Shown in pieces: positions 1,298 through 1,664 of a stretch of 37,362 nucleotides of DNA; the stretch's first letter is position 1, and each line of letters opens with the position of its first letter. A model generated the notes under the pieces. It saw only the letters and a list, made by a program, of their open reading frames with translations, did no database searches and was not told where the DNA came from. Origin of the DNA: a virus; IMG/VR virus record IMGVR_UViG_3300045988_106398; one strand, written 5' to 3'. The position numbers and the translations under genes are program-made.

Positions 1298-1326
1298 AGA
1301 GAGCCCATCTCTAAGCTCTCTAAAAA
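1298..1326 (-). terminator. Minus-strand intrinsic-terminator-like hairpin just upstream of the endolysin gene
   Basis: AGAGAGC(1298..1304)/GCTCTCT(1315..1321) form a 7-bp stem with a 10-nt loop. The minus-strand transcript continues UUUAUUG. Confidence 0.45.
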
Positions 1327-1329
1327 TAG

Positions 1330-1358
1330 TTGAAACTTTATTCCGTTTGCTCTATAAT
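1330..1358 (+). promoter_or_regulatory. Near-consensus sigma-70-type promoter on the plus strand (TTGAAA-17-TATAAT)
   Basis: -35 TTGAAA at 1330..1335, exact 17-nt spacer, -10 TATAAT at 1353..1358. It points toward the hairpin at 1419..1455. Confidence 0.6.
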
Positions 1359-1364
1359 ATAGTT

Positions 1365-1455
1365 ACAAAAAACAACCGCCACAAAGTGGTTGACCTTAAT
1401 AAGCTAACATAGAAAATGCCACCCTATACCGGTCAAAGTAATGAGGGTGGTTTTT
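1365..1455 (+). ncRNA. Candidate ~90-nt small RNA, a putative type I antitoxin convergent with the small toxin-like ORF
   Basis: Bounded by the consensus promoter (1330..1358) and a hairpin plus TTTTT (1419..1455). There is no credible ORF inside. Ends are predicted only. Confidence 0.3.
1419..1455. terminator. Bidirectional terminator-like hairpin (CCACCCT...AGGGTGG)
   Basis: 7-bp outer stem (1419..1425/1444..1450) plus inner TAC/GTA pairs. TTTTT follows on the plus strand and ATTTTCT follows on the minus strand. Confidence 0.55.
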
Positions 1456-1470
1456 CTATGGTTTAAATCA

Positions 1471-1569
1471 TTAGTGACAAATCAAGCAAATGAATGTCAG
1501 CAGTGATAAAATGAACATTCCAAAGGCCATAAGGTCTTTAAAATCAAATTGATTTTTATTATTGTCCAT
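1471..1569 (-). CDS. 32-aa hydrophobic peptide MDNNKNQFDFKDLMAFGMFILSLLTFICLICH (holin-like/type I toxin-like)
   Basis: My own translation; too short for the ORF track. SD GGGGGTGG lies 6 nt before the ATG. It has a single TM segment with an LM.FG.F..SL pattern reminiscent of putative holin-like toxin peptides, plus its own promoter and terminator. Confidence 0.5.
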   Translation of the reverse strand: MDNNKNQFDFKDLMAFGMFILSLLTFICLICH

Positions 1570-1635
1570 CAGCACCACCCCCATTCTATGTAGAATAGAG
1601 GTCATCCACCCTGTAACACGGTTGTTCTATTGATT

Positions 1636-1664
1636 ATATTATCATATCCTTTTTAATGTATCAA
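1636..1664 (-). promoter_or_regulatory. Minus-strand promoter (TTGATA-17-TAATAT) for the small toxin-like ORF
   Basis: On the minus strand, the -35 is TTGATA (1659..1664) and the -10 is TAATAT (1636..1641), with a 17-nt spacer. It lies directly after the holin stop. Confidence 0.5.

Follow-up and report, generated by a model that had tools for sequence, protein, structure and literature searches.

The window analysed here is the whole of a 37,362-nucleotide (nt) stretch of viral DNA, IMG/VR record IMGVR_UViG_3300045988_106398. At the left end of this gut-phage sequence, the minus strand carries, in this order, an XhlA-like gene, a holin gene, a gap of 422 nt and an endolysin gene. The gap holds a compact module that we describe as a putative type I toxin-antitoxin system, consisting of a gene for a 32-residue membrane peptide (the candidate toxin) on the minus strand and a convergent gene for a small antisense RNA (the candidate antitoxin) on the plus strand. 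The features of the module, including those of the 5' and 3' untranslated regions (UTRs) and the Shine-Dalgarno (SD) sequence, are as follows.

1636..1664, minus strand: toxin promoter, with the -35 hexamer TTGATA at 1664..1659, a TG extension at 1644..1643 and the -10 hexamer TAATAT at 1641..1636
1602..1626, minus strand: 5' UTR arm of a long-range duplex, AACAACCGUGUUACAGGGUGGAUGA, which pairs with 1395..1371 in minimum free energy (MFE) folds
1578..1601, minus strand: SD-sequestering hairpin of 10 bp, CCUCUAUUCU-ACAU-AGAAUGGGGG, which includes the SD sequence GGGGGUGG at 1582..1575
1471..1569, minus strand: open reading frame (ORF) of 32 codons for the membrane peptide MDNNKNQFDFKDLMAFGMFILSLLTFICLICH, a polar N terminus followed by a 19-residue hydrophobic helix
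1409..1459, both strands: shared hairpin T1, inner stem 1450..1444 with 1425..1419, conserved loop ACUUUGAC/GUCAAAGU
1371..1395, minus strand: 3' element GGUCAACCACUUUGUGGCGGUUGUU, then a U-run at about 1372..1367; partner of the 5' UTR in the toxin mRNA
1365..1456, plus strand: predicted antisense small RNA (antitoxin) of about 92 nt, made up of a 5' hairpin, a linker, the terminator hairpin and U5
1330..1358, plus strand: antisense RNA promoter TTGAAA-17-TATAAT, 11/12 consensus positions, the best match in the 3 kb scanned

The 99-nt minus-strand ORF (1569..1471), reported in an initial annotation of this DNA, is present and codes for MDNNKNQFDFKDLMAFGMFILSLLTFICLICH; its SD sequence, GGGGGTGG at 1582..1575, lies 5 nt ahead of the ATG. 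Mean hydropathy is -2.1 over residues 1 to 12 and +2.6 over residues 13 to 31, which corresponds to one hydrophobic helix. Residues D9, F10, K11, D12, L13, M14, F16, G17, M18, F19, L24, T25 and F26 are invariant across relatives, the polar N terminus varies in length among them, and the codons for the invariant residues occur in two to six synonymous forms each (six for L13 and four for G17). Since the residues are invariant while synonymous codons vary, the peptide is under purifying selection at the protein level. A longer ORF of 44 codons, starting from the ATG at 1605, was rejected as a real gene: this ATG abuts GGGUGG and has no spaced SD, and the "residues" preceding M13 are nucleotide-conserved 5' UTR read in frame, the true N termini differing in length.

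Two profile families had been suggested for the peptide in the initial annotation. The Hol_Tox family (Pfam PF16935) gave a consistent but sub-threshold match (16.8 bits, E = 0.006, residues 14 to 27 on profile positions 11 to 24), and the Fst family of Pfam gave none. All 22 relatives scanned matched Hol_Tox at E <= 0.1, the best of them (7e-5) roughly at threshold. The peptide also matched phrog_9488 (E = 2e-4), its nearest match in NCBIfam, a weak one, was the competence inhibitor ComI, and PADLOC returned no match for it or for the alternative cargo proteins described below. In the survey of Fozo et al. (2010; PMC2887945), some members of the TxpA family carry a holin-like toxin annotation, and their antisense RNAs overlap the 3' UTR. 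The peptide is best described as an outlying relative of the TxpA/Hol_Tox toxins and not as a curated member.

The structure and promoter counts given from here on refer to 69 aligned modules from many Lachnospiraceae genera. The minus-strand promoter TTGATA-17-TAATAT is where it had been proposed; it agrees with the consensus at 9 of 12 positions, has a TG extension and predicts a transcription start near 1629. Over 62 relatives, TTG and TAtAAT are kept at a fixed position, the TG extension occurs in 46 of the 62, and the spacer is not kept. A hairpin in the 5' UTR had been described as abutting the SD. The hairpin is there, but it is longer than described (1601..1578) and takes in the SD, which is therefore sequestered. 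Between 97 and 99.5% of its cells are paired over the 69 loci, with the stem variants CCUCU/GGGGG, CCUUC/GGAGG and CCUCC/GGAGG among relatives.

In addition to the features of the initial annotation, the two ends of the toxin mRNA can be joined by a long-range duplex of about 22 bp and about -35 kcal/mol, formed by the 5' UTR arm and the 3' element. The duplex appears in the MFE folds of the toxin RNA (z = -7.0 and -7.7); it dominates the 265-nt RNA running from 1629 to 1365 (z = -7.7), compared with z = -4.1 when the RNA is cut at T1. Compensatory changes affect 6 of the 8 pairs of its helix 1, in which 98% of cells are paired (69 loci), the variants being AACAACCG/CGGUUGUU versus GGCAAUCG/CGAUUGCC, with AACAGCUGC/GCAGCUGUU in L036. 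The complement of the 3' element forms the 5' hairpin of the antisense RNA (1373..1392, plus strand). As a separate observation, extra hairpins of about 20 nt sit exactly at the internal loop of the duplex, in the 5' UTR of L035, L052, L058, L060, L065, L072, L082, L085, L092, L101 and L102 and in the 3' element of L045; such insertions would fit a three-way junction, with the duplex itself preserved.

On the other strand, the promoter TTGAAA-17-TATAAT is likewise present, with 11 of 12 consensus positions, and kept in relatives. Its -10 hexamer reads T68 A67 T69 A67 A44 T68 over the 69 modules, the TTG of its -35 is found in 63 to 67 of them, and a TG extension in 60; the spacer is 16 to 17 nt long and not conserved in sequence. 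In 64 of the 69 loci this promoter lies 11 to 16 nt from the conserved element. A comparison of related phages had been proposed as a check on both promoters, and the hexamers and spacing of both proved to be conserved (62 loci on the toxin side, 69 on the antisense side); the region and the ORF, which could have been found missing or disrupted in relatives, are conserved across the related loci.

The plus-strand RNA of about 92 nt folds with -28.3 kcal/mol (z = -4.4), and RNAalifold, run on the antisense strand of 38 relatives, recovers both its 5' hairpin and its terminator. The terminator is T1 read on the plus strand, followed by U5 at 1451..1455, in keeping with the hairpin CCACCCU...AGGGUGG plus U5 (1419..1455) of the initial annotation. 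The T1 stem co-varies: 7 pairs are altered on both sides in the 69 modules, 5 of 7 pairs are compensatory in the RNAalifold set, where a U-run follows T1 in 38/38, and the stem switches between CCACCC/GGGUGG, CCUUCC/GGAAGG and CCUCCC/GGGGAG around the constant loop ACUUUGAC. On the toxin strand, the tail of T1 in the window's subfamily is weak (CAUUUUCU), and T1 would there be a leaky terminator or a structural hairpin. Searches with Rfam gave only chance-level matches on the window (RNAI, 16 bits; SSRC34_2, 17 bits) and no match on the module in six related loci.

The small RNA lies wholly downstream of the toxin stop codon (1471) and matches the final ~90 nt of the toxin mRNA, in its 3' UTR, with perfect complementarity (cofold -213 kcal/mol versus -119 kcal/mol for the two monomers). 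Pairing in trans with the toxin 5' region does not rise above chance (-35.1 versus -33.0 ± 4.8 for shuffles). The heptamer AGGGUGG does occur both in the toxin 5' UTR (1606..1612) and in the terminator, and it had been suggested that CCACCCU of the small RNA could pair with either site. This suggestion found no comparative support, the shared heptamer being specific to the window's subfamily, and pairing of CCACCCU with the AGGGUGG of the 5' UTR or with the SD was rejected. In subfamily B (described below), the stem is CCUUCCC while the 5' UTR keeps AGGGUGG, and SD type and T1 stem type assort independently (L056, L062, L075 and L087 join GGAGG with CCACCC); the idea of a second pairing site fails this comparison. 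The AGGGUGG of the 5' UTR is part of the long-range duplex, which we also call the clamp.

Taken over the 69 modules, the named structure is 93.5% paired, compared with 41 to 55% when it is slid as a control. Changes on both sides affect 15 pairs (162 cells), a value reached by 0 of 500 shuffles. The strand on which each helix is selected can be read from its G·U pairs: where selection acts on the RNA, G·U is tolerated in the transcribed strand, and such a position appears as A·C in the other. For the long-range duplex, the G·U:A·C count on the toxin strand is 131:13, and the energy is -38.1 kcal/mol on the toxin strand versus -30.9 on the opposite strand, the toxin strand being better in 65/69 modules. 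The SD hairpin behaves alike (112:5; -13.9 versus -7.8 kcal/mol; toxin strand better in 67/69). T1 shows the reverse (13:68; -20.0 versus -21.35 kcal/mol; opposite strand better in 42/69), as does the local hairpin at the 3' element (-7.3 versus -9.6 kcal/mol; opposite strand better in 50/69). Counts and energies thus assign the SD hairpin and the long-range duplex to the toxin strand, and the terminator and 5' hairpin to the antisense strand. From these strand-specific G·U patterns and energies it follows that both RNAs are under selection, including, as judged by the same patterns, the ~92-nt plus-strand RNA (1365..1456) as an RNA. The toxin mRNA most likely runs past T1 to the 3' element, since the duplex is selected on the toxin strand, the tail of T1 is weak, and a U-run follows the 3' element.

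The module is bounded by the following neighbours.

1959..2279, minus strand: XhlA-like "hemolysin" gene (phrog_937), directly upstream of the holin gene
1685..1945, minus strand: holin gene (Phage_holin_1 match, E = 3e-29)
1298..1321, minus strand: T2, a terminator-like backbone hairpin with a U-tract just upstream of the endolysin ribosome binding site (RBS), which marks the right boundary of the module (~1326)
219..1262, minus strand: endolysin gene (Amidase_3 and cell-wall-binding repeats)

The record nearest to the window is a 36-kb IMG/VR phage contig (G001), in which gap and module are identical. Sister phages with a 97 to 100% identical holin part from the window directly after the holin stop codon and rejoin it at ~1326, at the backbone hairpin before the endolysin RBS, which makes the module a cargo unit of 359 nt (1684..1326). 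T2 (1321..1298) was ruled out as part of the module, being common to sister phages L011-L018 that carry different cargo. Sister phages with the same holin fill the slot with other cargo of two types (L011:3262-4210 and L006:3262-4830 cover both): (i) ORFs of 56 and 236 residues of unknown function, with no match in Pfam or PADLOC, and (ii) a 71-residue ORF with an AntA/ORF6C antirepressor. Each of these alternative cargoes closes with its own terminator-like hairpin before the endolysin RBS, and the endolysin start of sister phages lacking the module is near-identical to that of the window. One further contig, L008, follows the window at 99% identity across the module and diverges within the T2 loop (window position 1306); this breakpoint, at L008:3640, reads as a recombination that joined the module to another downstream gene. 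The XhlA-like product comprises 106 residues, with a coiled coil and a C-terminal membrane helix, and similar small membrane/coiled-coil genes also precede the module in phages L126 and L146.

Among viruses, the module was found in 34 IMG/VR contigs that fall into about 21 distinct contexts, a grouping that is approximate (representative neighbours were scanned with Pfam, and the rest assigned to representatives by BLAST). In at least 11 of these contexts it immediately follows a holin or XhlA-like gene, immediately precedes an endolysin gene, or does both, and in lysis contexts it is always co-oriented with those genes. The holins concerned are unrelated (Phage_holin_1, Phage_holin_5_2 and two unassigned membrane proteins), as are the endolysins (Amidase_3, Amidase_2, GH25+ChW and GH25+CHAP). 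Few genomic loci of the family lie near recognisable lysis genes and most lie outside lysis cassettes, so that the obligatory linkage expected of a holin or antiholin is not seen, yet the phage loci are enriched in lysis cassettes. Other phage sites include a position between Phage_Gp15 and a tape-measure-like gene of ~1000 residues (L129, L134 and L137), positions downstream of the small terminase gene (L127, L145 and L152) and one after an HK97-gp10-like gene (L154); at the non-lysis sites where both neighbours were checked, the module is co-oriented with them. In Clostridioides difficile, the toxin AbiF and its antitoxin RNA RCd22 are also located between holin and endolysin (PMC12373285). 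The recurrence of the module between unrelated holins and endolysins, together with the same position of AbiF/RCd22, makes this gap a recognisable docking site, and it is a preferred one for RNA-controlled toxins in clostridial phages.

A search with the 44-residue frame gave 100 clusters at 90% identity, and a profile search of 1.84 billion representative proteins gave 322 representatives (50% identity) at E <= 0.001; among the 150 matches listed, only close family members were seen, and canonical Hol_Tox proteins were not reached. With each species represented by a single genome, a scan yielded at least 385 loci, nearly all of them in Lachnospiraceae and allies (Sellimonas, Blautia, Hungatella, Enterocloster, Roseburia and others). 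Close copies are carried by the cultured strains Sellimonas intestinalis BR72 (L028) and Hungatella hathewayi DSM 13479 (L075). The family occurs in small integrative elements between a sigma-factor gene and an integrase gene, at prophage ends, next to ordinary chromosomal genes and on plasmids, among them three mobilizable plasmids of Enterocloster bolteae that have no annotated feature under the match (NZ_CP053230.1:38264-38350, NZ_CP022465.2:938-1003 and NZ_CP069521.1:36955-37020). Neither distant blastn nor tblastn found the module in 50,697 GenBank phage records, and our literature search found no paper containing the peptide motif in its full text or describing this peptide/RNA family. 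The family is widespread in gut Lachnospiraceae and apparently undescribed. The class itself, TxpA-like type I toxin-antitoxin systems on prophages, is well known, and the module of the window is probably a further member of it.

The window copy belongs to a short-leader subfamily; it has neither a LexA box nor an extra 5' hairpin and lies inside a lysis cassette. Peptides of subfamily B start with MKNKFDF..., and their modules have a co-varying extra 5' hairpin. In 21 subfamily B loci (L041-L104), the toxin -35 is overlapped by a LexA/Cheo box, CGAACTTGTGTTC(G/T), some 35 nt upstream of the -10, which implies that the toxin would be SOS-induced in that subfamily; the corresponding box, GAACnnnnGTTC, is absent from the promoter region of the window. 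Several individual loci deserve mention. In Laedolimicola ammoniilytica (L095:158-525), the toxin ORF, leader and SD hairpin are intact, and T1, the 3' element and the antisense promoter are lost; the copy could be an orphan toxin, either decaying or perhaps under the control of a paralogous RNA that acts in trans. Tandem modules within 0.4 to 1.4 kb of each other occur in a group of records made up of P0001, L031 (2623 and 3025), L046 (3013 and 4457) and L084 (3025 and 3386), one of which has two toxin ORFs fused into a 77-residue frame. Some 2.6 kb downstream of the module, two unrelated loci (L028:5614-5663 and L117:6629-6678) have a gut-2 RNA that scores above the Rfam threshold (RF02990, 46 bits).

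Among known systems, the closest parallels are txpA/RatA, bsrG/SR4 and bsrE/SR5 of Bacillus subtilis prophage-like elements and EF3263 of Enterococcus faecalis, with which the module shares a single-helix peptide with an LM.FG.F...LLT core (a sub-threshold Hol_Tox match here), a sequestered SD and a home on prophages and mobile elements. A convergent antisense RNA of about 100 nt that overlaps the toxin 3' UTR (PMC2887945), the organisation of the txpA/RatA type, is predicted here as well. Unlike those systems, the module encodes a peptide below the Pfam threshold, with a polar N terminus of 12 residues and no charged C-terminal tail, its hosts are Lachnospiraceae, and its RNA is without an Rfam model. 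It also differs in having a 22-bp clamp between the 5' and 3' ends, the 3' arm of which is the complement of the antitoxin 5' hairpin. The Bacillus systems are not known to have such a clamp.

Long-range 5'-3' pairing and a buried SD that hold the full-length mRNA inert, as well as a strong antisense promoter, are features of hok/sok (including the prophage-borne hokW-sokW) and aapA1/IsoA1. In those systems, however, the pairing partner of Sok and IsoA1 is the translation-initiation region at the 5' end, whereas the overlap here is at the 3' end, and the peptides are unrelated and the hosts Gram-negative. The par system of pAD1 (fst, RNA I/RNA II) resembles the module in that its promoters converge, its bidirectional terminator is shared and its peptide has about 33 residues; its direct DNA repeats give the two RNAs complementary 5' regions, whereas the repeats here are inverted, so that the two RNAs have similar and not complementary 5' ends, and there is no Fst match. 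The small RNA is complementary to some 90 nt of the toxin 3' UTR, more than the shared terminator to which this overlap is confined in par, and shows no 5' pairing above chance; the arrangement is therefore that of txpA/RatA, bsrG/SR4 and EF3263 and not that of par. The type III system AbiF/RCd22 of C. difficile prophage phi027 (PMC12373285) resembles the module in placing a toxin and a regulatory RNA of about 100 nt between holin and endolysin, but AbiF is an Abi_2-domain protein neutralised by RNA-protein binding, whereas the module combines a membrane peptide with an antisense RNA.

The following mechanism is proposed. Transcription from the extended -10 promoter would yield a toxin mRNA of about 265 nt, which encodes a membrane peptide of 32 residues with a single helix, akin to the Hol_Tox/TxpA type. 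The 10-bp hairpin that buries the SD would keep this mRNA translationally silent, and the 22-bp duplex, tying the 5' UTR to the 3' UTR element about 210 nt downstream, would add a second layer of silencing. The near-consensus plus-strand promoter would produce an RNA of about 92 nt ending at the shared hairpin and U5. Pairing of the two transcripts would probably start between their complementary, sequence-conserved hairpin loops, and the resulting long RNA duplex would lead to mRNA decay by a double-strand-specific nuclease of the RNase III type, so that the peptide would be off in the lysogen, any surviving mRNA being held untranslated by the clamp and the SD hairpin. If the labile antisense RNA were lost, the peptide would be made and would damage the membrane; possible triggers are (i) loss of the prophage, (ii) transcription shut-off by an infecting phage, and (iii) late holin transcription sweeping against the antisense promoter. 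The comparative analysis shows the ORF, the two promoters, every RNA helix and the strand that each helix is selected on. The toxicity of the peptide, the instability of the RNA, the nuclease and a role in prophage maintenance, exclusion or help in lysis are inferred.

On balance, the cargo of the holin-endolysin gap (1684..~1326) is probably an autonomous type I toxin-antitoxin cassette, as had first been suggested. This reading is in line with the selection on the peptide, the conservation of both promoters, the covariation of T1, the strand-specific G·U patterns and the consistent, if weak, similarity to Hol_Tox. Of what characterises type I systems, the module has a gene for a small hydrophobic peptide selected as protein and, at the level of sequence and comparison, a gene for a cis antisense RNA with its own promoter and terminator that overlaps the toxin transcript; that the peptide is expressed and selected, and that the antisense RNA exists, appear each more secure than the reading as a whole. 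Several points weigh against this interpretation: (i) the peptide misses the Hol_Tox gathering threshold of 23.3 bits, scoring 16.7 bits in a six-frame search; (ii) some Hol_Tox-like or candidate toxins, such as YhzE-2, were non-toxic when tested (PMC2887945); (iii) in the other subfamily, T1 appears capable of terminating transcription of the toxin strand, which bears on the reach of the mRNA to the 3' element; (iv) the small RNA, when bound in the cofold, neither exposes nor further buries the SD, so that the proposed repression step is drawn by analogy from RatA and SR4; and (v) the loci are related by descent, and the covariation and strand counts are not independent events. Despite this kinship, the direction of the G·U asymmetry is hard to explain otherwise. 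Points (i) and (ii), together with the weak match to ComI, would suit a non-toxic, conserved small membrane protein, for example a membrane-stress or signalling peptide, whose level is tuned by a cis-antisense RNA. We regard this as very unlikely. Silencing in several layers, provided here by the clamp, the sequestered SD and the strong promoter of the convergent antisense RNA, is typical of toxin mRNAs; the module is mobile, occurs in multiple copies and is tied to mobile elements; and the LexA box of subfamily B overlies the toxin -35, as for tisB. Even less credit can be given to the idea that there is no antisense RNA at all, the conserved 130 nt after the stop codon being merely a toxin 3' UTR with clamp and terminators and the plus-strand promoter being fortuitous. 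The long-range duplex alone would account for the conservation of the 3' element, but not for the antisense hexamers, which lie outside the paired element and are kept in 63 to 69 of 69 modules at fixed spacing with free spacers, nor for the G·U pairs that T1 and the local hairpin carry on the antisense strand, nor for the U-run that follows T1 on that strand in every member.

A more serious contender is that the cassette is a lysis accessory and serves neither addiction nor defence, the peptide being a holin-like or holin-modulating factor; late read-through from the holin gene would then overrun the antisense promoter, and the small RNA would act as a safety catch in lysogeny only. The initial annotation had named holin modulation as an alternative, and its position in phages speaks for it, with at least 11 of the ~21 contexts at a holin or XhlA-like gene and/or an endolysin gene, always co-oriented, and with holins and endolysins that are mutually unrelated. 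There is also a precedent in hokW-sokW, which resides in a prophage, assists lysis and doubles the release of phage Sp5 (PMC8621323). However, the module brings along a conserved promoter and terminators of its own, recognisable lysis genes are not close to most of the genomic loci (at least 385 in all; neighbours are sigma-factor and integrase genes or TetR or MatE genes, and other copies lie on plasmids), and the sister phages with a 97 to 100% identical holin lyse without it, carrying an antirepressor or unknown ORFs in the slot. The module is found between tail genes and after the small terminase gene as well, and clostridial phages use the gap for cargo in general, as AbiF illustrates. 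We therefore consider a purely lytic function unlikely, and the holin-modulating alternative the weaker of the two originally put forward. A functional coupling to lysis, in which late holin transcription collides with the antisense promoter and so frees the Hol_Tox-like peptide, silenced in the lysogen by the antisense RNA, and the peptide acts with the holin on the timing or completeness of lysis, is somewhat less doubtful, though still a tentative proposal; if true, selection would explain the independent capture of the module between at least five unrelated holin/endolysin pairs.

To conclude, the toxin-antitoxin reading would assign a function to a family that is unannotated in RefSeq plasmid records, whose RNA is not covered by Rfam, and whose copies are spread over phages, integrative elements and plasmids. 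Its RNA architecture is unusually clear, with a buried SD, a 5'-3' clamp and an antitoxin 5' hairpin that mirrors the 3' arm of the clamp, and the strand-specific G·U patterns allow both transcripts to be inferred from sequence alone. Such toxins have been used in Clostridia as counter-selection markers (PMC7699646). The copies in the holin-endolysin gap offer a case for deciding between maintenance, exclusion and lysis as the role of RNA-controlled toxins.

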